The notes beneath the pieces are model-generated. The model made no database searches, had not been told where the DNA came from, and was given only the letters and a program-made list of their open reading frames with translations. A stretch of 64,000 bases of DNA from Candidatus Binatus sp. (GTDB lineage: Bacteria; Desulfobacterota; Binatia; DP-6). Shown here one piece after another: positions 34,187 to 61,455 of this stretch. The stretch lies in assembly GCA_035476275.1 (NCBI GenBank), contig DATILR010000440.1:1284-65283 (forward strand), in the 5' to 3' direction. The number at the start of each line of letters is the position of its first letter. Within the stretch, counting starts at the first letter, position 1. The position numbers were made by a program, and so were the translations under genes.

Positions 34187-35928
34187 TCAGGGCACGAGGC
34201 TCGCGTTCAATACCACCGTGCCACCCGTCAAGCCACCACCGTAGTCGGTCACCTCGAGCAGGTACAGCGACCCGGCGGTGACGGGGAAGCTGATGCGTGA
34301 GGTGAGCGCGCCCGTCGTCGGATCGTCGTCGTCGCAGGTGAGCGCGCTGACCGCCGGGCAGGCGCCCTCGTATGCGCTCAGCACCGTGTCGAAGCTGCTC
34401 CCGGCCGTGTCGACCATCATCGTCCCACTCTGCGGGGCGACGAAGCGGTACCACAGGCTGTGTCCCTGCTGGCCGCCCGTGCCGCAGGGGACGTCCGGAT
34501 CGTCCGACGAGACGCTCGCCCGATCGGAACTGTGGGTCACGCTGGCGGGGAGACCTGCCAGGTCGACCGGATCGGTGCACAGATCGCCCGGCAAGGTGCG
34601 CCGCGACGGGAGGCAGAGCTCCGTTTCCCGGCGCGTGTCGATCGTCCCCCCGCCCAGCTCGTTGCTCACCAGCACCCCCTTCACGGGCGTGTGCCCGACG
34701 TCGCCGAGCGGCTGGCGGACACCGTAGCAGAGCAGTGCATCGTCCGGGCTCTTGATGCCGTCGCCGTTCATGTCGACGGGCAGGCAGAGGTAGTGCGGGC
34801 GGCGCACCACGAAGCGCTGGGCGGCGGTCTTGAACTGGTTCGCGACCTTGAGCTTCTTGGCCCCCGGGAAGCGCGGGTTCGTCCGCACGACGTAGCACTC
34901 GTAATGGTCGACCGCGGTGGTGCTCAAGTCGGGGGGCGCCGGGGGCACCACCCGATCCGATGCCGTCGGGACCAGCAGGTGATCGGGCCGGACGACATCC
35001 ACCACGAGCGCCTCGAGCTGGTTGGTCACCGCGATGCCGGTGTGCGGGAGGTACGGGGGAGAGCCCGCCACCGGATCGATCGCATAGCCGACGAGCTGCG
35101 TCGCCGGATCGAGCGTCCCCTGTCCGTTCGCGTTGGCCGGCGTGCAGAGATCGCCTCGCCGGATCGCATCGAACTGCCGCGACTCGGTGGCCGTGACGAG
35201 GTGGATGCCGTTCACCGGCGTGAAGCTCGCCGTCCCGACCGTGGTGCGGGTGGAGTAGCAGAGGAATGGATCGATCGCGAAGCAGCCCCCGGGGAGTGTC
35301 CCGCACCCCAGTCGCACCTGCACGTCGACGACGTTGTTGGTCTCGTCGGCCTCGGGAATCTCGTTCTCGGGATCCATCACGACGTGCAGGCTGTACAGGG
35401 CGGGGGGCAGGTTCACGTCGGTCACGTCGATGTACTGGCACGGCAGGTACCCGCCGTAGACGTCGGAGCAGCCGGCGCTGATGCCCTGGTAGTTGCAGCT
35501 GGTGAACTGCGAATTCGCGCACTCGACGTCGATCAGGCAGAAGCCGTACTTCCGCGCCTGGGCGAGCACCGTCCCGTTGCCGTCGCGCAGCTCGGCGGTC
35601 GCGAAGCTCTGGAAGTGAGCGTGGCCGTGCGACAGGCTGCAGACGAACAGCGGGTTGGTGCATGCGGCACCGCGGAAGACGCGACAGTCGGGGCAACCGG
35701 GATCGCCCAGGACGAGCGGGTCGGGACCGAGATTCCGCGCGCGCAGCGCGAAGGTGAGCAGGCGGCGCCCGGTCGTCCCGCCGGCGCAGCCCTCGTCCAC
35801 GTCGCCCTGGATGACGTCCGAGGTCACGAGCGCGACGTCGAAGACCTCGGGCACCAGGTCGGGAGCAGCGCCGGCGACGGGCGGACGGGCCAGGGCCAGC
35901 AGCACCCCGATCAGACCCGCAATTCTCA
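34187..35928 (-). CDS. Lysyl-oxidase-like copper amine oxidase with signal peptide and a large C-terminal extension (about 580 aa; start approximate)
   Basis: Lysyl-oxidase copper-site HxHxH (SHGHAHFQSF). A lysine in KYGFCL aligns with the human LOX LTQ lysine (KASFCLEDT). GCSDVYGGYLPCQYIDVTDV aligns with the LOX GCYDTY...DCQWIDITDV block containing the LTQ tyrosine. The signal-peptide GTG start sits about 82 codons inside the tool ORF. Confidence 0.8.
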
Positions 35929-36258
35929 CGTGCGCGGAGCCTATCGCGCACGCGGAGCACCCGTCAAACGAAGTTACAGGCAACGGTTCTAGACAGCCTA
36001 TAGCCCCCTCACGCTTCGCCAGAGCCTTTCTAACCGAAGTTCGCGGATCTGAGGATACGGCCGCTCGGGGATGGGTGCTAGCGACGGCGGACCACGAGCC
36101 ACTTGATCGGACGAGCGCGGGACGCCTACTGTGGGGCTCATGTGGAAGCGGGTCGTCCTCGGCGGTGGCGTTCAAGAAGGCCCGGAACTTCTCCCTCTTC
36201 GACGCTCACTACGAGCCGTGCCGGTAGCCGCCTGACGCGCGACCGCCTCTCTCCGGCA

Positions 36259-38640
36259 ATGCGCCGCGCCGCACCGTTCCCCGAGCTCTTCCTCCTCTCG
36301 CTCGCGGTGATCCTGCTGGAGGTGAGCTACACGCGCATCTTCTCCTTCAAGCTCGTCTACTACTTCACCTACCTCATCATCGGCATCGCGCTCCTCGGCC
36401 TCGGCGCGGCGGGCGTCCTCGTCGTCCTCCTCGGACGGTCGCCGCGCGCCCCTGCTGCCCGCCTGGTGCCGCTCTGCGCCCTCGGCGCCGCCGCGGCCAT
36501 CCTGGTCGGCTATCTGGTCATCGCTACGGTCCAGCTGAACACTCTCACCCTCGTCGCGAGCCTGGTGCAACGGCAGCCCCTGGGGGTGCTCGTCGAGGGG
36601 ACGAAGCTCGCGTTCATCTGCCTCGCCCTCTTCACGCCGTTTCTCGCCGCCGGGCTCGCGATCGCCACGATTCTCGCCAATCACCCCGAACGCCTCGCCC
36701 GGCTGTACGCGGTCGACCTTTTTGGCGCCGGGCTCGGCTGCGCCCTCTGCGTGCCGCTCCTCGGTAGCCTCTCGCCCCCGGGCACCGTGCTCGTCGCGGG
36801 CGCTCTGGTCGCCCTCGCGGGCCTCCTCGCGGCCACCTCGCACATGCAGCGGCTCGCCGCCGTGGCACTCGTCCTCGTCCTCGCCGCGGGCGCGGCCTTC
36901 CCTGACCGGCTGCCCGATCCGGTGCCGGACCGCGCGAAGAACATGAGCCCCCAGCAGACCCGCGGTGCGAACGTTCTCTTCTCGCGCTGGAGCCCGGTCT
37001 TCCGCGTCGACGTCATCAGCTCGCCGTTCCCGCACCAGATGGGCCGCCGGCTCCTGCTCCACGACGGCCTCCTCGGCTCCCTCCTCATGCGCTTCGACGG
37101 GAATCTCGCGTCGCTCGCCGCGTACGAGCACGACGCGCGCGCCTATCCGTTCGACGTCCTCGCGCCGGCGCCGCGCGTCGCGATCATCGGCGCCGCGGGT
37201 GGCAACGAGATCCTCGCTGCGCTCTACTTCGGGGCGCGCCACGTGACCGCCGTCGAGCTGAACCCCGTGACGGTCCGGCTCCTCCGCACCGACTTCGCCG
37301 ACTACACGGGACACCTGGCGACCGACAAGCGCGTAACGCTCGTCAACGACGAGGGCCGGTCGTTCTTGGCACGCCACGACACGCACTACGACCTCATCTG
37401 GTTCGTCGCCCCGGACAGCTACGCGGCGATGAACGCCGCCACCTCCGGCGCGTACGTGCTCTCCGAGAGCTACCTCTACACCCGCGAGATGATCGGCCTC
37501 AGCCTCTCCCACCTGACCGACGAGGGCGTCATCTGCGCCCAGTTCGGCGAGTTCGCCGGGACGCCGAACCGGACCGTGCGCTACCTCAGCACGGCGCGCG
37601 ACGCCTTCCAGCGCCTCGGTATCCCCGACTTCGACCGGCACGTCCTCGTGAGCAGCTCGCCGAGCTACCAGATCGAGGCCTTCACGATTCTCATCCGCAA
37701 GACGCCCTTCGGCGCGGACGAGCTGGCCCGCTTCCGCACGCGCGCGGCAACGGTGGAGGGTTCCCGGGTGCACTTTCCCGCCGGCGGCGAGGGCGCCAAC
37801 GAGGCGATCGCCACGGTGGTCGCGGCCTCACCCGAGACGCTCGCCGCCTGGTACGAGCGCTACCCTTACGACGTCCATCCCGTCACCGACGACGCGCCCT
37901 TCTTCTGGCACTTCGCCCGCCTGCGCGACGTCCTCGCGGGGAGCTCGCCGAGTCCGATCTACAACTGGGAGCAGGGCCTGGGCGAGCGACTCCTCCTCGT
38001 CCTCCTCGTCATGGTGACCGGCTTCGCCGCCGTCGTCCTCCTCGCGCCCTTCGTCCTCGTCCGCCCGCTCTGGCAAACGCTGCCCCACAAGCTCCGCCTG
38101 AGCGTCTTCTTCGCCGCCATCGGCGCCGGGTTCATGTTCCTCGAGGTGACGCTCATCCAGCGCCTCACGCTCTTCCTCGGCTATCCCACCCACTCGCTGA
38201 GCGTCACGCTCTTCGCCCTCCTCGTCTCGACCGGGGTGGGTAGCGCGCTCAGCACGCGCTATCCACGGCGGGCGCTCGTGCTGCTCGGGGTCGGACTCGC
38301 CGCGCTGGTGCTCTTCTACCGGTACGGGCTGCCGCCCGTCCTCGCGGCCACGATCGGCTGGCCCTTCGCCGTGCGGGTCGGCCTCGCGGTGGCGCTGCTG
38401 GCGCCGCTCGGCCTCTGCCTCGGGGCCTTCCTCCCCCTCGGCATGCGCACGGCGACGGCGCTCACCCCACATCGCTCGGCGATCGTCGCGTGGGGGTGGG
38501 CGGTGAACGGCTTCGCCGCGGTCGTGAGCTCCGTGCTCGCGACGATCCTCTCCATGACGTTCGGCTTCGACGCCGTCATGCTCGCCGCGCTGGCGGTCTA
38601 CGCCCTCGGGATCGCGGCCCTTCCCGCGATCCCGGAGTGA
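36259..38640 (+). CDS. Membrane-embedded spermidine/spermine-synthase-family protein (polyamine aminopropyltransferase-like domain flanked by TM regions), 793 aa
   Basis: N-terminal about 230-aa multi-TM region. Central aminopropyltransferase-like Rossmann domain (VAIIGAAGGNEILAALYFGARHVTAVELNP; DLIWFVAPDS). C-terminal multi-TM region. Confidence 0.8.
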   Translation: MRRAAPFPELFLLSLAVILLEVSYTRIFSFKLVYYFTYLIIGIALLGLGAAGVLVVLLGRSPRAPAARLVPLCALGAAAAILVGYLVIATVQLNTLTLVASLVQRQPLGVLVEGTKLAFICLALFTPFLAAGLAIATILANHPERLARLYAVDLFGAGLGCALCVPLLGSLSPPGTVLVAGALVALAGLLAATSHMQRLAAVALVLVLAAGAAFPDRLPDPVPDRAKNMSPQQTRGANVLFSRWSPVFRVDVISSPFPHQMGRRLLLHDGLLGSLLMRFDGNLASLAAYEHDARAYPFDVLAPAPRVAIIGAAGGNEILAALYFGARHVTAVELNPVTVRLLRTDFADYTGHLATDKRVTLVNDEGRSFLARHDTHYDLIWFVAPDSYAAMNAATSGAYVLSESYLYTREMIGLSLSHLTDEGVICAQFGEFAGTPNRTVRYLSTARDAFQRLGIPDFDRHVLVSSSPSYQIEAFTILIRKTPFGADELARFRTRAATVEGSRVHFPAGGEGANEAIATVVAASPETLAAWYERYPYDVHPVTDDAPFFWHFARLRDVLAGSSPSPIYNWEQGLGERLLLVLLVMVTGFAAVVLLAPFVLVRPLWQTLPHKLRLSVFFAAIGAGFMFLEVTLIQRLTLFLGYPTHSLSVTLFALLVSTGVGSALSTRYPRRALVLLGVGLAALVLFYRYGLPPVLAATIGWPFAVRVGLAVALLAPLGLCLGAFLPLGMRTATALTPHRSAIVAWGWAVNGFAAVVSSVLATILSMTFGFDAVMLAALAVYALGIAALPAIPE

Positions 38641-38649
38641 CCCGTGCGC

Positions 38650-41643
38650 TCAGGGATGGGGCAGGACCCGTTGCGCGAACAGCGACCGGTAGGTGAGGTA
38701 TCCGTCGCTCAGATCGTCGAACCGTGAATCCAGGTACACCACGATCGAGGACGTTCCGGTATCGGCGATCGCCGCCGGACCGGCGGTGCCGGTCGCGCTG
38801 AGAAGCAATCCCGGCGTCTCGCTGTCGACGACCGTCCCGTTCGGGCTCAGGCGCGCGACGAAGGAGACGACCGGCGTCCCCTCGGGCGAGGTGACGGCGA
38901 GGAACGGCACCACCCAGTCGGTGCCGTCGAAGGCGACGTCGGTCGGCGCGAGGTAGTTGAGCGGCGCCAGGTTGGTGTTGAGGCGGATGCCGTCGGGGTC
39001 GAGCGACGTCCCGCCCGCCACCCGCGCCGCGATCGCGTCGTAGCCGCAGAGCACGGGCCCCGCGCAGAGATTGATCCGTTCCACCAGCACGAGGTACCCG
39101 GAGCCGTCGGTGGCGACGCGGACGAGCTCGTCGGCGTCGCGCAGGAGGTGCAGCGGCGGCGCGTCCATCACGGTGGTGCCCGCCAGCCGGATGCCGGCGA
39201 TCTTGTCGATGTACTTGCCGACCGACGAGGTCTCGCCGTCGGCCTCCTGCCAGACGACCAGGCACTCACCCGTGATGCAGGCGATATCGGGCTCGACGAA
39301 CTGCGGGAACTTCCCGCCGCGCGCCGGATAGATCCGCGTCTTCCTCCCTGCCGGCAGGCCGTTCTGCAGGACGCGGAGCGCGTAGATCTTGCTCCGGTCC
39401 GTGAAGACGTTGACGTCGCCCCAGAGGACCGTGTAGCCGCTGCCGTCGAAGCCGACCCGGACGCCGTAGAGCCCGCGCCGGTCGGGAAGCTTCTTGGACT
39501 CGACCGTCACGGCCGCTCCCAGGGGCTGGCCGTCCGGTCCGATGCGCATCACCTTCACGTCGTAGTAGTTGGCGAAGCGCCGCCCGATATCGACCTCGGT
39601 CCACGCGACCCACGCGACGAGGAAGTTCTGCCCGTCACCCGCGACGGAGACCGAGTACGCGAGCGGATAGGAGTCGGCGAGCTGGAAAGGCCCGGTCACC
39701 GTCCCCGTGTCGTCGATGCGCGCGCTCTGGAGGCCTTGCCCCCCGCTCCAGAAGACGAGCGAGCCGAGCGAACTCTGGATGACCCGCGGACCGCTCTCGA
39801 GGTAGCCGAAGTCCTGCACGACCATGATCTCGCCGCCCACGCGCTGGTCGCTGTGTACCTGCAGCGCGGCGGGGATGCTGCCGCCGCCGTCGACGGCGGA
39901 GGGCGCCGACAGGTCGACGGAACCCGACAGGCCGCCCACCGGGAGTCCCGTCGTGTCGAGCGCGATCGGCACCTTCGCCGACGTGGTGCCGCTCGTGCTG
40001 TCGGGGACGAGCCAGGACGGGCTCGCGAGCGTCCAGGGAACGGACCCGTTGCTGGTGAACGCGAAGTCGGCCGCCGCAGCGGACGGCCGCGTCTCGCCGA
40101 CGAACCCGTGCAGGTCGATCTGATGCGTCCGGAAGCGCGTCGTCACCGGCACCGGATCGAGGACGTGGGAGGCGTCGATCTGTCCCCATCCGAAGTAGGG
40201 ATTCCACGGCTGACCCACGTATCCCGGGTAGCCCGGCTGCGTGGCGTTCAGCTCGAGTTGCCAGCGCACCTCCTCGGGCGTGAGGCCGGGGAGCCCGGAG
40301 AGGATGAGCGCGCTCAGGCCCGCGGCGTGCGGCGATGCCATGCTCGTGCCCGACAGCCGGAGGTAGCTCTGCCCCACCCGCGCCCCGAACTGATCGACGG
40401 GGGACACGGAGCTCCGCGTCGAGAGCACGTCGACACCGGGCGCCGCAACCGACAGCGCGTTGCCGTGGTTCGAGAAGGAGGCGATCTGCCCGTTCGGACT
40501 GATCGCCCCGACGGCGATCACGCCCTCGATCCCCGCGGGCTCGAAATTGTCCACGCTGGCGGCCGAGTTCCCGGCCGCGGCCACCACCACGGCGCCGAGG
40601 CCGTTGGCCATGGCGACCGCGTCAACGAGCACCTGGCTGATGCCGAAGCCGCCCCAGCTGTTGTTGAGGACGTCGGCCCCGTTCTCCGCCGCGTACTCGA
40701 TCGCCTGAGCGAGGTCCGAGGTGAAGCCGCTGCCGTTCGCATCGAGGCCCCGGACGGGCATGATCTTCGCCCCCCAGGCCATCCCGACCACCCCCACGTT
40801 GTTGCTGCCGACGGCGGCGGCCGTGCCGGCCACGTGCGTCCCGTGTCCATGGAGATCCATCGGGTTCGCATCGTCCTGCACGAAGTCCCAGCCCGCGACG
40901 TCGTCGATGAAGCCGTTGCCGTCGTCGTCGATGCCGTTGCCGGGGATCTCTCCGGGGTTGGTCCAGATGTTGGCGGCGAGGTCGGGATGATTCGGATCGA
41001 CGCCGGTGTCGATCACCGCCACCACCGTGCCGCTGCCGTGCGCGAGGTCCCATCCCTGATCGGCATTGCTCGCGTGCAGGCCCCACAGATCCCCGTAGCC
41101 CTGCCCCCACGTGCCGGAGCTCGAGAAGTAGGGATCGTTGGGCGTGAAGGTGGTCTGCACGACGTAGTCGGGCTGGGCGTACACCACCTCGGGATCGGCG
41201 GCATAGCGCGCCGCCGCGGCAGCAACGTCGGTCCCGGCGGGCAGCTCGAGGACATAGACGTTCGACAGGTCGGGGACGGCTGCTCCCTTCGGGATGCGGG
41301 CCGAGCGGGCCGGATATTTGCCAAGGACCACATCGATCCGCTGCCGGTAGGTCGTCTTGCGATCCGCGTCGAGCTCGTGGTCTCGGAGGAAGAGCGGGTG
41401 CGCCTCGCGTACCCCGAACGAGCGGTTCAACCGATCGAGCGAATCGCGGCCCGTCGCGCTCTTGAACGGGAGCCCCTCGGCGACGAGGCAGCGGGCGCAG
41501 GTCGTCACCGACGAGCGGAACTTCACGATCAGGCGCGTCGGGTGGGCGGGCAGGACCTGATCGAGCACCCGGGGTGTGGGAAGAGCGGTACGCGCGGAGG
41601 AAACCGCCAGCACGGCGGCAAGCAAGAACGGCACCTTCTTCAC
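38650..41643 (-). CDS. Secreted S8 (subtilisin-family) serine peptidase with an about 550-aa C-terminal extension (998 aa)
   Basis: GTG start after a GAGGGAGG RBS. Signal peptide (VKKVPFLLAAVLAVSSA). Catalytic triad motifs (VIDTGVD, HGHGTHVAGT, GTSMASPHAAG). A long non-catalytic C-terminal region. Confidence 0.85.
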   Translation of the reverse strand: MKKVPFLLAAVLAVSSARTALPTPRVLDQVLPAHPTRLIVKFRSSVTTCARCLVAEGLPFKSATGRDSLDRLNRSFGVREAHPLFLRDHELDADRKTTYRQRIDVVLGKYPARSARIPKGAAVPDLSNVYVLELPAGTDVAAAAARYAADPEVVYAQPDYVVQTTFTPNDPYFSSSGTWGQGYGDLWGLHASNADQGWDLAHGSGTVVAVIDTGVDPNHPDLAANIWTNPGEIPGNGIDDDGNGFIDDVAGWDFVQDDANPMDLHGHGTHVAGTAAAVGSNNVGVVGMAWGAKIMPVRGLDANGSGFTSDLAQAIEYAAENGADVLNNSWGGFGISQVLVDAVAMANGLGAVVVAAAGNSAASVDNFEPAGIEGVIAVGAISPNGQIASFSNHGNALSVAAPGVDVLSTRSSVSPVDQFGARVGQSYLRLSGTSMASPHAAGLSALILSGLPGLTPEEVRWQLELNATQPGYPGYVGQPWNPYFGWGQIDASHVLDPVPVTTRFRTHQIDLHGFVGETRPSAAAADFAFTSNGSVPWTLASPSWLVPDSTSGTTSAKVPIALDTTGLPVGGLSGSVDLSAPSAVDGGGSIPAALQVHSDQRVGGEIMVVQDFGYLESGPRVIQSSLGSLVFWSGGQGLQSARIDDTGTVTGPFQLADSYPLAYSVSVAGDGQNFLVAWVAWTEVDIGRRFANYYDVKVMRIGPDGQPLGAAVTVESKKLPDRRGLYGVRVGFDGSGYTVLWGDVNVFTDRSKIYALRVLQNGLPAGRKTRIYPARGGKFPQFVEPDIACITGECLVVWQEADGETSSVGKYIDKIAGIRLAGTTVMDAPPLHLLRDADELVRVATDGSGYLVLVERINLCAGPVLCGYDAIAARVAGGTSLDPDGIRLNTNLAPLNYLAPTDVAFDGTDWVVPFLAVTSPEGTPVVSFVARLSPNGTVVDSETPGLLLSATGTAGPAAIADTGTSSIVVYLDSRFDDLSDGYLTYRSLFAQRVLPHP

Positions 41644-41723
41644 CGGAGCCTCCCTCTGTGGTCGGTCGAGGGCGCATGATCGCAGAGGGCGCACCTCGCA
41701 AGCAAGGAAAATGTCCCTCTGGC

Positions 41724-42962
41724 TCACGGAAACGGGACGCGAACCGTCAGGCGGGTCCCGCTTTCGGAGGAGATGGCGACCGTCCCACCAAGCGCGCGCG
41801 CCCGCTCGCGAATCCCGACCAGCCCGGTCCCCGGGCGGCTCGCACCGCCGCGCGGGAGACCGACGCCGTTGTCCTCCACTTCCAGGCGGAGCTCGCCGGC
41901 GACCGAGGCCAGCCGGACCCGCACGCGGCTCGCCTCCGCGTGACGCGCCACGTTGGTCAGGGCTTCCTGCGTGATCCGGTAGAGCGCCACCTCGACGTCG
42001 GCCGGCAGGCGCTCGGGAAGATCGTCGGCACTGAAGGTGATGGCGATCTGGTGCCGCTCGGCGAACGCTTTCAGGTGGCCGTCGAGGGAGGGCACGAGAC
42101 CGAAGTCGTCGAGCACCGACGGTCGGAGGAGCTGCGACAGCTCGCGCATGGCGCTCAGCGTCTTCGAAACGAGATGGCGCGCCTCGCCGATGCGCGAGCG
42201 GAGCGCGGCCTCGTCCCCCGGCGGCTGCCGCTCGACGAGCCAGAGATACGCCATCACCGCCGTGAGCGATTGCCCGAGCTCGTCGTGGAGCTCGCGCGAG
42301 AGCCGCCGGCGCTCTTCCTCCTGGACGGACATCAAGCGCGACGAGAGGGCGGCGAGCTCGCTCTGTCGTCGCGCCAGACCCACGCGGAGCTCGCCCAGGG
42401 CGTGCGCGCTCCACACGGCGATGATCGAGCCGGCGACGAGCGCTCCGAGGCTCACCAGGAACGGATCGGCGTCACCGATGGCGGCCCGGCCGACGATCGA
42501 GAAGGCGAGACAGAAGATGCCGCACACGGCGACCGTGCGTCGCGTGTCCCACGAGAAGAGCACGGTGCTGCCCACGAGGAGGCAGATGAGCCCCGCCACG
42601 TTCAGCGACTGGTGGTGCTGGTACGTGTAGACGCGGAGGTAGGTGTTGAAGCCGAAGCCCGCGATCAGGAGCAGCCCCAGACGGTCGGCCTGGCGCCGGC
42701 CCACGGCGGTGAAGCTGGCCAGCAGAACTGCCGTGGCGATGGCCGTGTGGAAGGCGGCGCTCACCAGCATCCAGAATCGATCGGGGTCGGGAAAGTTGAT
42801 GTACTCGATCGGAAAGAAGAGCAGGCCCGCGGCGAGGGCGATCAGGGCCGCGGTGCGCACCCGGGGCAGGAGTGCGGGATACTCGCCCTCGGCGAGGGCG
42901 GTCGGGGCCGGGCGCCCGTTGTCCGCGCGCCCGTTCGTGGGGCTCCGCGCGGACGGTTCCAC
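41724..42962 (-). CDS. Membrane sensor histidine kinase (HisKA_3 type), no cognate regulator nearby
   Basis: About 5 N-terminal TM helices. H-box SRELHDELGQSLT. HATPase_c with GTGLVGIRERA. Confidence 0.8.
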   Translation of the reverse strand: MEPSARSPTNGRADNGRPAPTALAEGEYPALLPRVRTAALIALAAGLLFFPIEYINFPDPDRFWMLVSAAFHTAIATAVLLASFTAVGRRQADRLGLLLIAGFGFNTYLRVYTYQHHQSLNVAGLICLLVGSTVLFSWDTRRTVAVCGIFCLAFSIVGRAAIGDADPFLVSLGALVAGSIIAVWSAHALGELRVGLARRQSELAALSSRLMSVQEEERRRLSRELHDELGQSLTAVMAYLWLVERQPPGDEAALRSRIGEARHLVSKTLSAMRELSQLLRPSVLDDFGLVPSLDGHLKAFAERHQIAITFSADDLPERLPADVEVALYRITQEALTNVARHAEASRVRVRLASVAGELRLEVEDNGVGLPRGGASRPGTGLVGIRERARALGGTVAISSESGTRLTVRVPFP

Positions 42963-43030
42963 GTGGCGAGCCGTATCGCGGCCCGGCCGCGGAGGTCAAG
43001 CCGGTCTTGGGGGTTGTCCGGGCACCGGGC

Positions 43031-44014
43031 TCAGTGGACGGGCGCCGCGCTACACAGGAGGCCGTGATCCTGCAAGAAGCAGCCGGGCGCGCTGGGCGGC
43101 GGCGTCGCCTCGTCGTCGCGGTAGTAGTAGCCGGTCATGAAGCACATCTCGTCGTCGGTCGTGACGCCGAAGGTCACCGGGTGATCGTCGTTGTTCGTCC
43201 AGTTGCAGGTGAACCGGAAGACGTCGCCCTGCCGTAGATGAAGGGGGGTCGGCGTCCAGTACTCGTAGGGGTGATCCCAGTCGTCGTTCTCGAAGATCTG
43301 CCCCATGTTTTGGCCACCGGCGGTGAGGTTGATCGTGACCTTCGTGCCCCGCTTGTGCTCGTGTGAAGAGAGCTGGATCACGTTCAGGTCGTACGGTACC
43401 ACCCATTCCGCCGTCGTCGAGGCCGCGGAGTGGGCCGGGATGTGGATGTCGTACGCCCCCACGGTCAGGTTCTCGGCGTGGTGGAGCACGCTCCCCTTCT
43501 TGGCCGGGATGACGTTGAAGAGGATGTCCGGCGTGAGCGAGTCGGTCAGCGAGGCGTTGATGTAGTGCGAGTTGAGGAACACGGGCTGGTGCGGCTCCAG
43601 GCGGACCGCGATGCCGGGAGGGAAGCGCGTGAGCTCGTGCGTGTTCGGGGCGCCGCCCAGGAGCGCGCGCTGGAAGCTGTCCCTCGGACCCAGGCCGATG
43701 CAGCCGGGCGCCTCGACGATGCCCCGGGGAAAGTCGGCCGCGTTCCGATCGCCCCCGAAGTAGGCCCACAGGGCGAAGTGGTGCGTCCCCGCGTTCATCT
43801 TGAACTCGAACTGCTGCACGTCCATCGCCTTGTCGTTGGGGAACGTGCGGTACTCGCAGACCTCGCGCTCGGTAGCGGGGGGGACCGTGAACTTCCCCAT
43901 GCGCATCTGGAAGCCGCGCGGGGGGTGCCGGAGGTGCACCCGGCCGGCCGAGCCCGGCACGGCGAGGAGCGTCACGGCAGCGAGGGAAGCGACCACGCGA
44001 CCGATGGACAGCAT
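43031..44014 (-). CDS. Copper type-II ascorbate-dependent monooxygenase-like protein (PHM/DBH family), secreted
   Basis: Signal peptide. CuH-site residues HH (GTHHF) plus a third His about 71 residues later (NSHYIN). CuM-site HxHxxG (SHEHKRG) plus a Met in an EMC context (DDEMCFM). Spacing (HH, +71 H, +68 HxH, +73 M) matches the PHM H107/H108-H172-H242/H244-M314 layout. Confidence 0.72.
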   Translation of the reverse strand: MLSIGRVVASLAAVTLLAVPGSAGRVHLRHPPRGFQMRMGKFTVPPATEREVCEYRTFPNDKAMDVQQFEFKMNAGTHHFALWAYFGGDRNAADFPRGIVEAPGCIGLGPRDSFQRALLGGAPNTHELTRFPPGIAVRLEPHQPVFLNSHYINASLTDSLTPDILFNVIPAKKGSVLHHAENLTVGAYDIHIPAHSAASTTAEWVVPYDLNVIQLSSHEHKRGTKVTINLTAGGQNMGQIFENDDWDHPYEYWTPTPLHLRQGDVFRFTCNWTNNDDHPVTFGVTTDDEMCFMTGYYYRDDEATPPPSAPGCFLQDHGLLCSAAPVH

Positions 44015-44083
44015 GGGCGCCAGTAACCAAAAGGCGGGCAGATCGTCAAGACGCGAAACGACCGTTCGGGCGATTCGTGGTGC

Positions 44084-44329
44084 TCAACGACCCCGTCGCG
44101 CCAGCAGACCGGATGCCCGCGCCGCCTGCTGCGCGGCCGTGACGCGCTCGCGAACCTTGCCGGTGTGATGCCGGCGGCCCGACGCACCGGTGCCGAGCGA
44201 CGGAACCAGGCGCGAGGCGAGCTGGACGAGCCCGCGACCGAAGACCACCCCGGCGCCGAGCGCCGTGAGGAGGATCCGATACCCCAGGCTCAGCGCGTCG
44301 TGTCCCACGTCCCCCGCGATCGAGGCCAT
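44084..44329 (-). CDS. Hypothetical small single-TM protein (81 aa), low confidence
   Basis: The ORF fills the gap between the monooxygenase and FAD-oxidase genes on the same strand. One hydrophobic helix. Weak RBS. Confidence 0.3.
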   Translation of the reverse strand: MASIAGDVGHDALSLGYRILLTALGAGVVFGRGLVQLASRLVPSLGTGASGRRHHTGKVRERVTAAQQAARASGLLARRGR

Positions 44330-44410
44330 CGTCCTGCCATCACGTCCCTACCCTCATGAAGGCCGGGGAGCAAGGCGTCGCTGCGCCACCACGGAATTCC
44401 GTCGGGGAAA

Positions 44411-45793
44411 TCACCCCACGCGGTGCAGCTTCTCGTAGAGATCCCGGAACATCCCGCGCGGATCGAGACGGGCCTTCACCTGCCGGACGGTCGCCTCGTC
44501 GTAGATGCTCCAGAAGCGCTCGGCGCTGTAGTGATTGCGGGAGATCAGCGTCTTCAGGCCGCCGAGCTCGTACGTCTTCTCCTCGAGCTGCTCGGAGCGA
44601 TCCACGCCCGGATCGCCGTTCGGCATCCCGTAGACCGCGAGGTCGACGTAGAGGTCGCCCGCGCGCGCGCGGTGCCCGGCCGAGAGCCAGGGGTAGGGCT
44701 TCGGCACGCGGTACGGGACGACCCAGAGGGGGAAGTAGCGCAGCTCGCGCAGGTACCAGTCGTAGAACTCCGGCACGCGGCCGGCGGGGATGAAGTAGTC
44801 GCAGACCACGTCGGGCCGCCGCTTCAGGCGGAAGATCGGCCGCAGCCGCCCCGACCAGCGAATCATGTTGGTGGAGCCGAGGAAGAGCCGGCCGAGGAGG
44901 AAGCGGACCGGCTTCCACTCGAGCGGCGGCACCGTCCGGCTGAGCCAGTGCGCCTCCGTGTCGTAGCGGAAGAAGTAGTCCGGGGTGGTGAGCACGTCCT
45001 CGTCGAGCACGCGAGTGCTCTTGTAGTAGACGTCGAGCCAGCGGTAGGAGCTGGCGCGCCGCGCCCGCTCGACGAAGCGGCCCAGGCACAGGGTCCAGTG
45101 GTCGGGGGCGTGCACGATCCCGTCGATGAAGTCGACGTCCGCCGCCTCGCACCGTGCCAGCATGGCCGCGTGCAAGGAGGCGGGATCGCGGAATCGCCGG
45201 TACTCGACGTGCACGTACGGCTTGGCGGCGACGAGGGCGAAGCGCACGCGCGTGAGGATGGCGAGCGTGCCGTACGAGCCGTGGATCATGCCGAAGACGA
45301 GCGGCTCGTGCTCGGGCGAACAGCCCAGCACCTCGCCGGTGCCCGTCACGACCTCGTAGTCGAGGCAGGAGTCGTGAAAGCCACCGTAGCGGAACGAGCT
45401 CGACTCGACCGAGCATCCCGCGACGGCGCCGCCGAGCGTGATGCCCTCGAGCTCGGGCACGACCGCCGGCACGAGCCCGTGTCGCAGGGTCGCGTCGACC
45501 ACCGCGCGGAACGTGACGCCTGGCTCCGCGACGCACAGCCGGCGCTCGACGTCCACCTCGAGGACGTGGCGCAGGGTGGAGACGTCGATGCGACGGCCCG
45601 TGAAGCGGGAGTCGCCGCTGGCGAGCGGCACGACGTGATGCACGCCGCCCTTGTCGATGTGCACCGGTCCGCGCGCGCCGACGAGGGCCCGCACGGTCTC
45701 CGCGACGGCGCCCACGCGGCGATCGTGCGCGGCGTCGGTCACGCGGCGGCCGCCGCCTTCGCCGGTCGACCGCGGGTCAGCGTCCATGACCAC
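44411..45793 (-). CDS. FAD-linked oxidoreductase (PCMH-type FAD_binding_4 domain; ALO/DprE1-like), 460 aa
   Basis: N-terminal FAD-binding PCMH-type region (VVPLASGDSRFTGRR...GITLGGAVAGCSVESSS) and a C-terminal substrate domain ending ...RNHYSAERFWSIYDE...DPRGMF. The overlapping 398-aa ORF in another frame is an artefact. Confidence 0.8.
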   Translation of the reverse strand: MVMDADPRSTGEGGGRRVTDAAHDRRVGAVAETVRALVGARGPVHIDKGGVHHVVPLASGDSRFTGRRIDVSTLRHVLEVDVERRLCVAEPGVTFRAVVDATLRHGLVPAVVPELEGITLGGAVAGCSVESSSFRYGGFHDSCLDYEVVTGTGEVLGCSPEHEPLVFGMIHGSYGTLAILTRVRFALVAAKPYVHVEYRRFRDPASLHAAMLARCEAADVDFIDGIVHAPDHWTLCLGRFVERARRASSYRWLDVYYKSTRVLDEDVLTTPDYFFRYDTEAHWLSRTVPPLEWKPVRFLLGRLFLGSTNMIRWSGRLRPIFRLKRRPDVVCDYFIPAGRVPEFYDWYLRELRYFPLWVVPYRVPKPYPWLSAGHRARAGDLYVDLAVYGMPNGDPGVDRSEQLEEKTYELGGLKTLISRNHYSAERFWSIYDEATVRQVKARLDPRGMFRDLYEKLHRVG

Positions 45794-45904
45794 GATGTCG
45801 GCGTATCCTCATCGAGGCGTTCGAGGAAGTGCCCCAGGCGCACTGCCTCGAGCCCGCTCCGGCGCCCTTGACCCGCACCTCGGCCACGGCGTAGGTCACG
45901 GCCC

Positions 45905-46312
45905 ATGGAGCTCAAGGGCAGGTGCTATTGCGGCGCGGTCCGCTATCGCGCCGAGGGCGAACCGATCTTCCGCGGACAGTGCCATTGCCGGGAATGCCAG
46001 TACATCTCGGGCGGGCATCCGAACGTGGTGATGGGCATGCCCGAGCCGGGCTTCTCCTATACCAAGGGCTCGCCCAAGGCGTTTCGCCGCACCGACATCG
46101 CCGATCCCGCGACGCGCGAGTTCTGCCCCGACTGCGGGACACACCTCCTGACCAGGTCGGGACGCCTGCCGGGCGCCGTCCTCATCAAGGTCGGCACGCT
46201 GGACGACCCTGGCGTGTTCGGCGGGCCTCAGATGGTGATCTTCACCATCGACAAGCAGAGCTTCCACCACGTCCCGGACAGCGTCCCCGCGTTCGAACGC
46301 CTTCCCGGCTGA
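45905..46312 (+). CDS. GFA-family (CENP-V/glutathione-dependent formaldehyde-activating-like) zinc protein
   Basis: The two Zn-cysteine clusters typical of GFA (CYCGAVRY...CHCRECQ; CPDCGTHL). Confidence 0.88.
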   Translation: MELKGRCYCGAVRYRAEGEPIFRGQCHCRECQYISGGHPNVVMGMPEPGFSYTKGSPKAFRRTDIADPATREFCPDCGTHLLTRSGRLPGAVLIKVGTLDDPGVFGGPQMVIFTIDKQSFHHVPDSVPAFERLPG

Positions 46313-46402
46313 CGCTCCGCCCGATGTGAGACGGCGCGAGCCGCCCGCCACCCGCTCGACCCACCCGAGGCCCGGACAGTCTGCTATCTTCCGGCCCTCC
46401 TC

Positions 46403-48244
46403 GTGCGTAAGGGCGACCCTCGTTTCTGGAACTGGCTGGCAGCCGTCCTGCTCGTGTCGGGGGTCTATTCCGCCCTGCACACCTTCACGCGCTGGATTCC
46501 ACACGATGAGGGCGTGCTCGCACAGATGGCCGAACGAGCGCTGTCCGGAGAGCTGCCGCACGCCGACTTCGACGAGATCTATTCGGGCGGACTGACCTTC
46601 TTGAACGCGCTGAGCTTCGTCCTCTTCGGCGCGCGCCTCTCCTCGATGCGTATCACCCTCTTCGTGTTCCATCTGGGCTTCCTCGCATCCCTGTTCTCCA
46701 TCGCCACGCGCGCGGCGCGACCTCCCGTGGCCGCCCTCTTCACCCTCCTCTGCCTGAGCTGGGGCTTACCGAACTACTTCGCGGCACTGCCGTCCTGGTA
46801 CCTCCTGATGTTCGCCATCTACGGCACGCATGCCACCGTCAGATACGTCGAGACGGAGCGCGAGGGATGGGTGGTCCTGGCGGGCTTCGTCGGAGGGGTG
46901 TCCTGCCTCTTCAAGGTGGCAGGGGTCTACTATCTGCTGGCGCTCCTGCTCTTTCTCGTCTACCGGGAGCAGCTCCGGGCCGAGGGCGCCGGCGTTGCGC
47001 GGTCGCGCTCGCTCGCGACGTCCCTGTCCGTCCTTCTCGTGCTCGCCTGCCCGGTGATCCTTCTGCTGGGACTGACCTGGGCGAGACTCGATGCGATGGA
47101 GGCGATCTACTTCGTGCTCCCCGGAACCGCCGTCTGCCTCTTCCTGGCGTGGAACGAGTTGCGATCGAACGACGCCGGGCACCAGCGACTCCGCAGAACC
47201 GCGCGCGCGTTCCTGCATGTGGGACTCGGAGCCGCCGCGCCGGTCCTCGTGTTCCTGGTTCCGTATCTCCTCAGGAACGATCTCCATTCGCTCTACCGGG
47301 GCCTCTTCGTGCTCCCGCAGCGCCGATACGACTTCGCCTTCTACCCCCTGCCACCCCCATGGGCTCTTCTCGCCACGCTGCCGATCGCGGCCATCGTCTG
47401 TCTGCCGATCGTCTGGCGCCCCCGCGCGAGCTGGGTCGTCGTGGGCGCGGTCATCGTCCCGATGGCAGCCGTGGTGAGCTTCGGCTTCGAGCAGCCGATC
47501 TACCGTTGGGTCTGGTACTCGGTGCGGCCCCTCGGACCCTTCGCGGCCATGCTGACGTGCGCGCTCCCCCTGCTCGGACGCAGGGAGCCCGCACCCACCA
47601 TGGCGCAACGCCAGCTGCTGTTCCTCATGGGCGCGATGGCGGCATTCGTGAGCGTGGTCCAGTTTCCCTACTCCTTCGGGGTCTACTTCTGGTACGCCGC
47701 TCCACCCATCGCCCTGGCGATCCTGTTCGCGACGACGTACGCACACCCCACATCGTGGTCGAGGATCCACCTCTGCTTGCTGCTGTTCTATCTCGCCTTC
47801 GGCGTCCTCTGGTTGAACACGGGGAACGTGCGCACCACGGGCGTGCTCTACCTCCACTCCGACGCCGACCAGCTCCTCCTGCCCGAGCGAGCGAATCTGC
47901 GGGTGCGCGGGTCCGACAAGGAGGTCTACGAGACCCTGGTGCACGTGATCGACCGGCTGGCCGGCGGCGATCCCTACATCATGGCGACCCCCGATTGTCC
48001 GGAGGTCTACTTCCTGTCGCGGCGAAAAAACCCGACCCGGGTGCTGCACGAGTTCCTCGACCCCGTGAAGCCCACACCGCGACAGCTGCTGGAGCAGCTG
48101 ACGACGAAAGGGGTCCGCGTCGTCGTTCTGAATTCCCGGCCGGAGTTCTCACAGCCCGTGTCGCACGAGCTCTACGCGACGCTCACCGAGGTCTACTCGC
48201 AGCACACCGACGTGGGGTGGTTCCGGGTGCTGTGGAAGGACTGA
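46403..48244 (+). CDS. Large polytopic membrane protein, possibly a GT-C-type (ArnT/PMT-like) glycosyltransferase
   Basis: At least 12 predicted TM helices across about 500 aa, followed by a soluble about 110-aa C-terminal domain. The family call is by architecture only. Confidence 0.55.
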   Translation: MRKGDPRFWNWLAAVLLVSGVYSALHTFTRWIPHDEGVLAQMAERALSGELPHADFDEIYSGGLTFLNALSFVLFGARLSSMRITLFVFHLGFLASLFSIATRAARPPVAALFTLLCLSWGLPNYFAALPSWYLLMFAIYGTHATVRYVETEREGWVVLAGFVGGVSCLFKVAGVYYLLALLLFLVYREQLRAEGAGVARSRSLATSLSVLLVLACPVILLLGLTWARLDAMEAIYFVLPGTAVCLFLAWNELRSNDAGHQRLRRTARAFLHVGLGAAAPVLVFLVPYLLRNDLHSLYRGLFVLPQRRYDFAFYPLPPPWALLATLPIAAIVCLPIVWRPRASWVVVGAVIVPMAAVVSFGFEQPIYRWVWYSVRPLGPFAAMLTCALPLLGRREPAPTMAQRQLLFLMGAMAAFVSVVQFPYSFGVYFWYAAPPIALAILFATTYAHPTSWSRIHLCLLLFYLAFGVLWLNTGNVRTTGVLYLHSDADQLLLPERANLRVRGSDKEVYETLVHVIDRLAGGDPYIMATPDCPEVYFLSRRKNPTRVLHEFLDPVKPTPRQLLEQLTTKGVRVVVLNSRPEFSQPVSHELYATLTEVYSQHTDVGWFRVLWKD

Positions 48245-61441: not shown

Positions 61442-61455
61442 GCGATCTCGGATCT

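Follow-up and report, generated by a model that had tools for sequence, protein, structure and literature searches.

PHM (peptidylglycine alpha-hydroxylating monooxygenase, EC 1.14.17.3), DBH (dopamine beta-hydroxylase) and TBM (tyramine beta-monooxygenase) are textbook eukaryotic enzymes of the superfamily of non-coupled binuclear (type II) copper monooxygenases, represented in Pfam by PF01082 and PF03712. Their fold consists of two eight-stranded beta-sandwich domains, with a solvent-filled cleft of ~11 A between the coppers; the mechanism, which involves long-range electron transfer between the uncoupled coppers, is still debated. To complete amidation, PHM is paired with a PAL (NHL-repeat lyase) domain or gene. 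The classical mark for amidation in PAM substrates is a glycine with basic residues after it, and in PHM itself the residues R240, N316 and Y318 are, following the 1OPM literature, what we take to be the anchors of the substrate carboxylate and backbone, with R240 and Y318 holding the carboxylate.

A stretch of 64,000 nucleotides from Candidatus Binatus sp. (hereafter the window) contains a gene whose product resembles these enzymes. The first-pass annotation had tentatively placed this gene, together with an 81-aa ORF, an FAD-linked oxidase and perhaps an S8 protease and a lysyl oxidase, in a system that matures peptides or proteins outside the cell. The analysis described here arrives at a simpler unit: the gene probably encodes a Sec-exported two-copper monooxygenase-like enzyme that forms a single-gene unit, with the 81-aa ORF (the mini ORF) as its sole conserved companion. 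The features of the locus are listed in Table 1.

Table 1. Features of the PHM-like locus and its surroundings, in window coordinates
Feature	Position	Strand	Remarks
Lysyl oxidase gene	34187..36175		Pfam
Secreted S8 subtilase gene, variable neighbour	38650..41643	-	GTG start at 41643; signal peptide VKKVPFLLAAVLAVSSA; PF00082, E=5e-62
HisKA_3 sensor histidine kinase gene, variable neighbour	41724..42962	-	Downstream of the PHM-like gene; Pfam HisKA_3, HATPase_c
PHM/DBH-fold two-copper monooxygenase-like gene	43031..44014	-	327 aa + stop; PF03712
Positions equivalent to PHM R240, N316, Y318	43133..43369	-	S216 (43367-43369), F292 (43139-43141), T294 (43133-43135); profile-PDB alignment
Predicted CuM-site ligand codons	43145..43363	-	H218 (43361-43363), H220 (43355-43357), M290 (43145-43147, in DDEMC); aligned to PHM H242, H244, M314
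Predicted CuH-site ligand codons	43565..43783	-	H78 (43781-43783), H79 (43778-43780), H150 (43565-43567); aligned to PHM H107, H108, H172
Predicted Sec signal peptide, PHM-like residues 1-23	43946..44014	-	MLSIGRVVASLAAVTLLAVPGSA, followed by G; read by eye
Mini ORF, 81 aa	44084..44329	-	Weakly hydrophobic segment at residues 19-37, basic C-terminal half, conserved RER..AAQQAARASGLL; co-inherited with the PHM-like gene
VAO/PCMH-type FAD_binding_4 flavoenzyme gene	44411..45793	-	458-460 aa, ATG at 45787; PF01565
Presence/absence segment with the FAD gene	44382..45901	.	Close-relative comparison

The PHM-like gene has a codon-position GC of 0.63/0.45/0.93, typical for genes of the 70% GC window. 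Of the two superfamily profiles, with which the first-pass annotation had proposed to check its assignment, PF03712 (Cu2_monoox_C) matched residues 210-302 of the protein (E=2.9e-11, 43.5 bits against a cut-off of 23), and PF01082, the N-terminal, CuH domain, gave no Pfam match at E<=0.01; nonetheless, the N-domain of PHM (chain residues 22-128) was aligned by the family profile, and the predicted model superposes on both domains. Against rat PHM, the family profile aligned over chain residues 22-291 (E=3.7e-10), covering both domains with the six ligands in register, and Cys equivalents of PHM C81, C126, C293 and C315 were matched in that alignment. The AF2 model is all-beta (pLDDT 94.1, pTM 0.87), and its best 31 Foldseek matches in the PDB were all PHM or DBH (E 4e-15 to 6e-11, TM 0.55-0.68), after which the search fell to unrelated jelly-rolls at E>7e-6. 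Pfam found no DOMON domain in the protein, whose 327 aa comprise the core only. At the N-terminus, the model has a lower-confidence helix (residues 2-16), and the homologue alignment has a variable hydrophobic stretch that ends in A-x-A right before the conserved mature start.

The six ligands did not vary in an alignment of 78 homologues. In a set of 150 distant representatives, CuH ligands were kept in 139/139 and 144/144 non-gap sequences, and CuM ligands in 145/145 and 140/142; judged by these alignments, the six-ligand match is far beyond chance. The sequence and model data together support membership of the protein in the PHM/DBH/TBM copper monooxygenase fold group, with two predicted copper sites, and the earlier description of a secreted PHM/DBH-like enzyme that carries all six ligands at native-like spacing is upheld by the profile alignment, the ligand invariance, the high-confidence model and the family-wide A-x-A terminus. 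By analogy with PHM, DBH and TBM, the exported, disulfide-stabilised, two-domain enzyme would receive electrons one at a time at CuH, two in all, and relay them to CuM, where O2 would be activated and a C-H bond of the bound substrate hydroxylated.

The nature of that substrate was approached through the three anchor positions, none of which is kept: S, F and T stand at the positions aligned to R240, N316 and Y318. Across the 150 representatives, T/S/A/V/Q/G occupy the R240 position, where Arg is never among the common residues; I/F/M/V stand at the position of N316, and mostly F/T/I/Y at that of Y318. Because the carboxylate and backbone anchors of PHM are replaced by small or hydrophobic residues, the enzyme would act on a substrate other than peptidylglycine in a hydrophobic pocket, a reading based on three positions of an alignment with 18% sequence identity; a glycine-extended peptide is probably not its substrate. 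Neither a PAL-like nor an NHL gene was found among the ~45 window ORFs scanned with Pfam or as a conserved neighbour in related loci.

Gene neighbourhoods were surveyed at 34 genome loci, 8 further contigs and 52 metagenome loci, and across these the mini ORF alone recurs beside the PHM-like gene. It lies directly upstream of that gene in 10/10 loci with PHM identity of at least ~73% and nowhere else, being missing beside more distant PHM-like loci, the 64-70% relatives included. Homologues were called as 81-86-aa genes in 6 protein clusters. Compared with its counterpart in L042, the ORF has zero indels, its differences fall 17/9/36 by codon position, and synonymous/non-synonymous changes number 28/25 in frame versus 7/43 and 8/43 in the other frames. 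Since substitutions are biased by codon position and the length of 246 nt is preserved in 5 distinct variants, the mini ORF is, by these sequence measures, a real coding sequence, as the first-pass annotation had it; the single transmembrane segment claimed for it is borderline, with a best 19-residue Kyte-Doolittle mean of 1.69 and an Arg within the segment. Its product matches no known family in Pfam or NCBIfam and is probably a small basic, membrane-associated protein. By synteny, it is the only neighbour truly linked to the PHM-like gene.

The co-inheritance, purifying selection and constant length of the mini ORF, its hydrophobic segment followed by a basic tail, and its distance of 69 nt from the PHM-like start codon are all consistent with a membrane-bound accessory subunit (an anchor, a copper-loading or redox-coupling factor, or a regulator), in which case a two-protein complex, and not a lone enzyme, would be formed. 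We regard this as possible although rather unlikely, given the borderline hydrophobicity for a transmembrane helix and the lack of a known family; moreover, the ORF is confined to one shallow clade and therefore reflects no general requirement of PHM-like enzymes. The preferred reading remains that of an enzyme working as a single-gene unit, with a lineage-specific small ORF immediately upstream.

Such enzymes had been called rare in bacteria, which the size of the family contradicts: in a library of 1.84 billion proteins, the family profile found 8747 cluster representatives (50% identity) at E<=1e-3 and 556 at E<=1e-30, and Binatia genomes carry several paralogues each. Of the 130 representatives in which the motifs can be recognised, 53 are extended at the N-terminus, and 38 of these contain CxxCH (17) or Cx4CH (21), 164-187 residues before the HH motif. 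An MP dipeptide is present in 43/43 CxxCH/Cx4CH proteins, mostly 65-89 residues after the first Cys. The fused domain also gave Pfam matches to PSCyt1, Cytochrome_CBB3, Cytochrom_C550 and the N-terminus of the haem-c enzyme CTI, all of them sub-threshold, and its assignment as cytochrome-c-like is made from these matches and the motifs only. About 30% of close family representatives carry such a domain, which suggests that haem, and not ascorbate, is the reductant in this family. The window protein has no cytochrome-c-like domain and no mono-haem cytochrome gene adjoins it; because the CxxCH/Cx4CH...MP domain found in this share of its close relatives keeps a constant distance to the CuH motif, it probably receives its electrons in the cell from a separate c-type cytochrome, in trans, and not from ascorbate.

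It could be argued that the PHM fold and ligands have been kept in a protein that is not a monooxygenase but binds or stores copper, acts as an oxidase or transfers electrons: biochemical data on bacterial members were not found in the literature, and ascorbate is, to our knowledge, generally absent from bacteria. We consider this improbable. Both copper sites are fully kept over thousands of divergent sequences, including the Met thioether in DEMC that is specific to an O2-activating CuM, which argues for retained catalysis, and the repeated occurrence of fusions with a putative electron-donor domain is in keeping with a redox enzyme that is supplied with electrons from outside. With monooxygenase activity as the favoured reading, a broader and distinctly tentative picture may be drawn of a very large bacterial branch of PHM/DBH enzymes in which a c-type haem donor, fused in ~30% of close representatives and in trans here, would replace ascorbate, the substrates would be hydrophobic, non-peptide and periplasmic, and the 81-aa membrane partner would have been acquired in this Binatia lineage.

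The remaining neighbours give a different result. The mini ORF and the FAD gene had been described as following the PHM-like gene on the same strand; all three were found at the positions given for them and do lie on the minus strand, but transcription runs from the FAD gene through the mini ORF to the PHM-like gene, placing both upstream. The FAD_binding_4 identity of the first gene was confirmed (PF01565, E=4.4e-17, 62.5 bits against 26.4), and every NCBIfam match fell far below its cut-off, with no equivalog-level assignment. Its AF2 model (pLDDT 85.6) matched cytokinin dehydrogenase and DprE1 in Foldseek (E about 1e-20, TM about 0.65); the FAD_binding_4 domain and a two-domain VAO fold are common to all three, whereas identity is 14-19% and by sequence only the FAD domain aligns. 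No hydrophobic stretch or signal peptide was found at the N-terminus of the protein, and this flavoenzyme is, as read from its sequence, cytoplasmic and outside the monooxygenase unit. Its family numbers 1905 homologues across phyla, with 60-83% identity in Actinomycetota and Polyangium, and its loci elsewhere (L046, L047) have no PHM-like gene.

A maturation operon of the PHM-like enzyme, FAD oxidase and mini ORF, perhaps with the S8 protease and lysyl oxidase and serving amidation, cross-linking or processing, was suggested by several features of the window. The FAD, mini, PHM-like, kinase and S8 genes are five consecutive minus-strand genes with gaps of only about 70-80 nt and may be co-transcribed in this particular strain. 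The nearby lysyl oxidase and S8 protease were both confirmed by Pfam, putting three secreted enzymes inside 10 kb. The window lysyl oxidase contains a DUF7450 domain, which in P0234 forms one protein with a PHM-like domain and in L001 is encoded close to a PHM-like gene. The FAD-mini-PHM order recurs in L048, L049, L051 and L054, where the presence/absence segment is intact, but these relatives are 91-100% identical. Exactly this segment is missing from relatives whose PHM-like genes are 92% (L050) and about 75-80% identical: where L050 and L073 match positions 45902-46315 of the window (GFA gene), that match gives way within ~75-110 bp to one with 44381-43028 (mini ORF and PHM-like gene), a clean indel. 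The FAD gene is also missing from L042, L052 and L053, and no FAD homologue lies within 10 kb in any of the 34 PHM-like loci of other genomes or the 8 further contigs; all-against-all clustering of neighbours found no conserved partner of the PHM-like gene. L051 has no kinase gene, L050, L052, L053 and L073 keep remnants of 30-40 aa, and L088 has the gene intact, and only a C-terminal remnant of the S8 protease is left in L052, L053 and L073. A gene of opposite orientation (36103..38640, +) parts the lysyl oxidase from the PHM-like gene. With a flavoenzyme that has no signal peptide, a monooxygenase stripped of the PHM peptide anchors and no PAL-like gene in the window, the maturation system is very improbable and, by synteny, largely refuted, and the proposed co-occurrence of PHM-like and FAD genes was not borne out. 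On this comparison, the FAD, kinase, S8 and lysyl oxidase genes are unrelated neighbours of the PHM-like gene, what looks like a cluster is almost entirely a chance arrangement of one lineage, and these neighbours are no guide to the function of the enzyme.

The notion that the mini ORF is a RiPP-like precursor substrate, whose conserved ...LLARRGR end, once trimmed of its last Arg, would present a terminal Gly to be alpha-hydroxylated or amidated, draws on strict co-inheritance at 10 loci, on RRGR ends in 7/8 variants and on the likeness to eukaryotic prohormones, and is highly implausible, because this sole glycine-extended candidate lacks a signal peptide and, by the positive-inside rule, would keep its strongly basic C-terminal half in the cytoplasm while the enzyme is exported, the carboxylate anchors R240 and Y318 are gone, the most divergent variant (P0371) ends in ...LLSRS with no Gly, there is neither a PAL-like lyase nor a dedicated exporter, and more distant PHM-like paralogues have no mini ORF.

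Among described enzymes, the closest in structure is the PHM core of rat and human PAM (1PHM, 1OPM, 3MLL), which has in common with the window protein the two beta-sandwich fold (Foldseek E=4e-15, TM 0.6-0.65), the DEMC motif, the matched Cys residues, export, and a ligand spacing that is almost the same (window versus PHM: HH-H, 71 versus 64; H-HxH, 68 versus 70; HxH-M, 70 versus 70). The window protein differs, at 17-20% identity, in being a bacterial, stand-alone protein with no PAL partner and no scoring PF01082 domain, in its replaced anchors, and in that ascorbate is an unlikely reductant. DBH, tyramine beta-monooxygenase and MOXD1 (4ZEL; chains at E=2.4e-13 and 1.2e-12, TMq 0.61-0.68) have the same core and ligands and act on small molecules, not peptides, which is closer to the hydrophobic pocket suggested for the window enzyme; however, the latter has neither the N-terminal DOMON domain nor the C-terminal dimerisation domain that flank their core, and identity is 14-15%. 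The bacterial relatives with CxxCH/Cx4CH domains (P0255, P0256, P0328 and P0093-P0097, for example), and in the same phylum the 540-556-aa forms of Binatia loci L032, L035, L036 and L040, have the same PHM-like core with all ligands, preceded by a cytochrome-c-like domain of ~170 aa whose distance to the CuH motif is constant, whereas the window protein would need its donor in trans. A small bacterial enzyme with a signal peptide and only 304 residues in its mature form would offer a tractable new model: all ligands are kept, the substrate pocket differs, and the fused relatives suggest that its electrons come from a protein donor. Such an enzyme would also be a sign that the Binatia, abundant soil bacteria, carry out C-H hydroxylation in the periplasm that has so far gone unrecognised.

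The PHM-like gene encodes an exported protein with a PHM/DBH fold in which both copper sites are conserved, and it stands as a single-gene unit whose small companion ORF is lineage-specific; the flanking genes are unrelated. The protein exceeded the Pfam cut-off for PF03712 (Cu2_monoox_C; 43.5 bits versus 23), while PF01082 gave no scoring match in Pfam and a DOMON domain was absent; the profile check put forward in the first-pass annotation was thus borne out for the former model only. The proposed ligands H78, H79 and H150 (CuH) and H218, H220 and M290 (CuM) were invariant in an alignment of 78 homologues, as were C53, C105, C270 and C291, and among 150 much more distant representatives the ligands were kept, in that order, in 139/139, 139/139, 144/144, 145/145, 145/145 and 140/142 of the sequences with a residue at the respective column. 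A phmmer search of the PDB with the single sequence returned His-tag artefacts only and nothing meaningful; the family profile matched both domains of rat PHM (profile 35-310, chain 22-291, E=3.7e-10), pairing HHf with H107-H108, lnlH with H172, tHqH with H242/H244 and DEmC with D312-C315, and the PHM cysteines C81, C126, C293 and C315 were matched as well. An AlphaFold2 model built on the family alignment was all-beta (mean pLDDT 94.1, pTM 0.87), and the first 31 Foldseek matches in the PDB were PHM and human DBH (E 4e-15 to 6e-11, TM 0.55-0.68, identity 14-20%), after which scores dropped to unrelated jelly-roll proteins. Because PF03712, ligand invariance, the profile-PHM alignment, the model and the Foldseek matches agree, the ligands do not lack profile or structural support and the homologues do not fall into a non-copper family; the six-ligand protein recognised at first pass is real. 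Its N-terminus, MLSIGRVVASLAAVTLLAVPGSA/G, looks by eye, and not from predictor output, like a Sec signal peptide; across the aligned homologues, a variable hydrophobic N-terminus regularly closes with A-x-A right before the conserved mature start. A protein recorded as 'MAG TPA: hypothetical protein [Candidatus Binatus sp.]', with the JGI name 'Copper type II ascorbate...', matches it at 100% identity, which makes the window a piece of chromosome from an uncultured soil bacterium of the Binatia (Binatota). The superfamily to which the gene belongs is a known one, already recognised by databases, and the gene is one of its divergent bacterial members.

The GC content of the window is 66-75% throughout, and codon-position GC (GC1 ~0.7, GC2 ~0.5, GC3 ~0.9) was used as the criterion for real genes because most long ORFs in such GC-rich DNA are spurious. 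The FAD, mini ORF, PHM-like, kinase and S8 genes are separated by gaps of ~70-80 nt (see table). The remaining ORFs of the window (AcrB, AddAB-type helicase-nuclease, ClpB, ABC transporter, GST, thiolase, methyltransferases, aquaporin) are ordinary chromosome. A promoter and terminator scan of 41500..46500 yielded little information, with 0 promoters, and 3 terminator-like sites versus 1.4 expected. Between the mini ORF and the start codon of the PHM-like gene, the 69-nt spacer (44015..44083) carries a TTGACG hexamer and, further downstream, a (T/C)TACT(G/A) element, both kept in an 83% identical orthologue (L042, 633-703); these elements may form an internal promoter with a nearly leaderless transcript, for which the consensus scan of 41500..46500 made no call.

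Features of the window and of related loci (L, loci in other genomes or metagenomes; P, homologous proteins or cluster representatives)
Feature	Position	Strand	GC3	Remarks
FAD_binding_4 gene	45793..44411	-	0.95	first in transcription order
81-aa mini ORF	44329..44084	-	0.84	second in transcription order
PHM-like gene	44014..43031	-	0.93	third in transcription order
HisKA_3 histidine kinase	42962..41724	-		fourth in transcription order
Secreted S8 subtilase	41643..38650	-		fifth in transcription order
GFA-family gene	45905..46312	+		upstream of the minus-strand run, divergent
PMT_2 glycosyltransferase	46403..48244	+		upstream of the minus-strand run, divergent
845-aa spermine synthase-like membrane protein	36103..38640	+		weak match to a spermine/spermidine-synthase domain (Pfam E=1.4e-4, just under cut-off)
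Lysyl oxidase	36175..34187	-		set apart from the FAD-to-S8 run by 36103..38640 (+)
MtrC/MtrF-like protein	61459..63999	-		Pfam Mtrc-MtrF_II-IV_dom 4.6e-45; 9 CxxCH; runs off window end
Multihaem protein	60362..61498	-		12 CxxCH
Multihaem protein	59421..60578	-		10 CxxCH; Paired_CXXCH_1 4e-33
711-728-aa protein	57394..59580	-		no Pfam match; after the multihaem genes
GFA-to-mini ORF junction without FAD gene	L050 5561-5635; L073 548-660
PHM-like pairs	L080 50-709 + 2309-3274; L082 3547-4509 + 6001-6933; L083 835-1776 + 3390-4355
Fused subgroup	P0225-P0362, P0093-P0097			loci L032, L035, L036, L040

It had been proposed that the PHM-like gene, the FAD oxidase, the mini ORF, the lysyl oxidase and the S8 protease constitute an extracellular maturation system; this multi-gene system is not real, and the flanking genes are unrelated. 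The FAD gene is not a partner of the PHM-like gene. A tblastn search with its product against 34 PHM-like loci of other genomes (+/-10 kb) and further contigs gave no match, so that the suggested co-occurrence amounts to 0/34, and all-against-all blastp of the ORFs at ~40 loci found no family recurring beside PHM-like genes except generic SDRs; neighbour clustering detected local synteny in four near-identical long-form loci, made up of housekeeping-type genes (epimerase, acyltransferase, carboxyltransferase). In a presence/absence series of close relatives drawn from the metagenome scan, the FAD-mini-PHM order was present in L048 and L049 (100%) and in L051 and L054 (91-93%), and the FAD gene was absent from L050 (PHM-like protein 92% identical) and L073 (tblastn segments 82% and 73%). 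In the latter two loci, homology to window 45902-46315 (GFA) is followed by ~75-110 bp and then by homology to window 44381-43028 (mini ORF and PHM-like gene); the missing piece is exactly window 44382..45901, ~1.5 kb comprising the FAD gene and short flanks. The FAD gene is therefore a clean ~1.5-kb presence/absence polymorphism among closely related Binatia, and L042, L043, L052 and L053 (83-84%) have yet another upstream region. In tblastn, the PHM-like match in L073 (1086-2022) is split into two segments that overlap (query 1-132 and 104-327), which suggests a frameshift (pseudogene or assembly error).

The FAD protein is a VAO-type flavoenzyme, and it is cytoplasmic because its N-terminus, VVMDADPRSTGEGGG..., contains no hydrophobic segment. 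It belongs to a family of far greater size and conservation (1905 matches at E<=1e-10), with homologues of 60-83% identity in Actinomycetota and Polyangium; in Polyangium (L046) and another genome (L047) the surroundings of the homologue are different and a PHM-like gene is lacking. In structure, the modelled FAD protein (pLDDT 85.6) is similar to cytokinin dehydrogenases and DprE1 (TM ~0.65, 14-19% identity); sequence alignment with these is confined to the FAD domain, and its NCBIfam matches are all far under cut-off. The C-terminal 'FPLWVVPY' motif may resemble DHCR24/DWF1 reductases. A tie to the divergent PMT_2 glycosyltransferase, following DprE1-like logic, is unsupported, since the GFA gene lies between them and no glycosyltransferase stands beside the FAD homologues in L046 and L047.

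The kinase and the S8 protease are neighbours as unstable as the FAD gene. The HisKA_3 kinase is intact in L088, fragmentary in L074, reduced to 30-40-aa remnants in L050, L052, L053 and L073, and absent from L051, where the S8 gene begins ~110 nt past the PHM-like gene; of the S8 gene, L052, L053 and L073 retain the last ~84 codons only. In the window, the kinase is not followed by a response-regulator gene. The most stably syntenic downstream neighbour is the spermine synthase-like membrane protein, which is kept in L052, L053 and L073 (82-85% identity) despite the decayed kinase and protease.

The mini ORF is the sole real companion of the PHM-like gene, and within 43031-45793 only these two belong together. 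Its 246 nt align to L042 with no indels, and the differences at codon positions 1, 2 and 3 number 17, 9 and 36; codon changes in frame are 28 synonymous and 25 non-synonymous (7/43 and 8/43 when read in the other two frames), and the same comparison gives 62/54 for the PHM-like gene. Non-coding conserved DNA is ruled out by this codon-position pattern. Six protein clusters of 81-86 aa in the public collection match the mini ORF, and in their alignment the core TALGAGVV.G.GL and, towards the C-terminus, the block RER..AAQQAARASGLL are invariant; neither Pfam nor NCBIfam gave a match. When an HMM built from these sequences was searched against six-frame translations of all 99 loci, the mini ORF was found solely directly upstream of PHM-like genes at least ~73% identical to that of the window (10 loci, 5 distinct variants), and never beside the 38-70% relatives. 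The label 'single-TM' given to it at first pass is plausible but not secure, as the best 19-residue hydrophobicity is 1.69 and an Arg lies within the segment; if the protein does span the membrane, its C-terminus would be in the cytoplasm, given the acidic N-terminus and very basic C-terminal half. In the window, the mini ORF and the PHM-like gene share a frame, separated by one stop and 69 nt; stop-codon read-through or fusion was rejected and the shared frame considered coincidental, because the frames differ in L042 (317-nt offset).

A word-indexed search returned 97 relatives of the PHM-like protein, ~92 of them with 320-340 aa and 41-100% identity, from metagenomes and Binatia MAGs, and five with 540-556 aa and 27-30% identity. 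An exhaustive search with the family profile, covering 1.84 billion cluster representatives, yielded 8747 matches at E<=1e-3, 3458 at <=1e-10 and 556 at <=1e-30, the lower-scoring tail probably including eukaryotic PHM and DBH; given these numbers, the fold is not rare in environmental prokaryotes, contrary to the description 'rare in bacteria'. Among species-representative genomes, relatives come mostly from MAGs of Binatia or 'delta proteobacterium', each of which has 3-4 paralogues, for example MFD03975.bin.1.282 (L019, L021, L026, L029) and SMAG_U4345 (L013, L015, L035), and more distant copies occur in Ignavibacteriales, Bacteroidota, Polyangiaceae and Myxococcales. Some metagenome contigs (L080, L082, L083) carry two PHM-like genes 1.5-2.5 kb apart, with 26-27% and 39-41% identity to the query, which are tandem divergent paralogues. 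No characterised bacterial PHM-like member was found in the literature, and the family goes unmentioned in the reference genome analysis of the Binatota. A DUF7450 repeat is present in the lysyl-oxidase protein of the window (residues 377-487), is fused N-terminally to the PHM-like domain in the homologue P0234, and forms a separate 182-aa gene 2 kb from the PHM-like gene in L001 (13018-13566); perhaps the repeat is a module that secreted proteins of these bacteria have in common.

Fusions were counted in the 130 of the best 150 representatives with recognisable HH and HxH motifs: 77 are stand-alone, as is the window protein, and 53 are extended at the N-terminus; 38 of the 53 contain CxxCH (17) or the unusual Cx4CH (21) at a strikingly constant position, 164-187 residues ahead of the CuH HH motif. 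With the Binatia long forms counted in, all 43 CxxCH/Cx4CH proteins have an MP dipeptide, 65-89 residues past the first Cys in 41 of them, and a W(I/L)..GAP motif is present in most; a His/Met-ligated class-I-like c-type cytochrome would be expected to show CxxCH and then MP. Pfam gave sub-threshold matches only (PSCyt1, Cytochrome_CBB3, Cytochrom_C550 and the N-terminal portion of CTI, a haem-c enzyme), so a firm Pfam identity was dropped and the assignment is based on motifs. By these motifs, the fused subgroup looks like a putative haem-c/dicopper monooxygenase fusion, which seems undescribed. The recurrent fusion of a cytochrome-like domain beside the CuH domain suggests that haem c, not ascorbate, would supply electrons in the bacterial PHM-like family. 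The stand-alone window enzyme would then need an electron donor in trans; no mono-haem cytochrome gene adjoins the PHM-like gene, and the sole CxxCH-rich window genes form a multihaem cluster 13-20 kb off with no demonstrated link to it. This MtrCAB-like cluster (57394..63999, minus strand), in which the 711-728-aa product could be an outer-membrane barrel, suggests a capacity for extracellular electron transfer in a Binatia MAG.

The contexts of the paralogues vary (P450s, acyl-CoA ligases and dehydrogenases, TetR regulators, SnoaL-like proteins, luciferase-like monooxygenases), and because no neighbour is conserved, their fit to the lipid- and hydrocarbon-rich metabolism of Binatota (PMC8262859) is only a hint on the substrate. 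No PAL-like (NHL) protein was present among the ~45 window ORFs scanned.

In the PHM complex 1OPM, R240 and Y318 hold the carboxylate of the substrate glycine and N316 the peptide backbone; in the profile alignment, the window protein has S216, T294 and F292 at these positions. Among the 150 representatives, the R240 column holds T/S/A/V/Q/G, the N316 column I/F/M/V and the Y318 column mostly F/T/I/Y. With these replacements, no PAL-like gene in the scanned ORFs and neither PF01082 nor DOMON, the window protein is not a PHM in the strict sense; its substrate probably differs from that of PHM and is more hydrophobic. From the shared fold and metal sites, it would be expected to work like the PHM/DBH family, in which case two-electron reduction would proceed via CuH, O2 would be activated at CuM (His2Met) and a C-H bond of the bound substrate would be hydroxylated; with lower confidence, we infer that the substrate is hydrophobic and not a peptidylglycine, and that the reductant is a c-type cytochrome. 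The substrate pocket and electron supply of the window enzyme likely differ from those of known superfamily members, and the enzyme family deserves biochemical attention.
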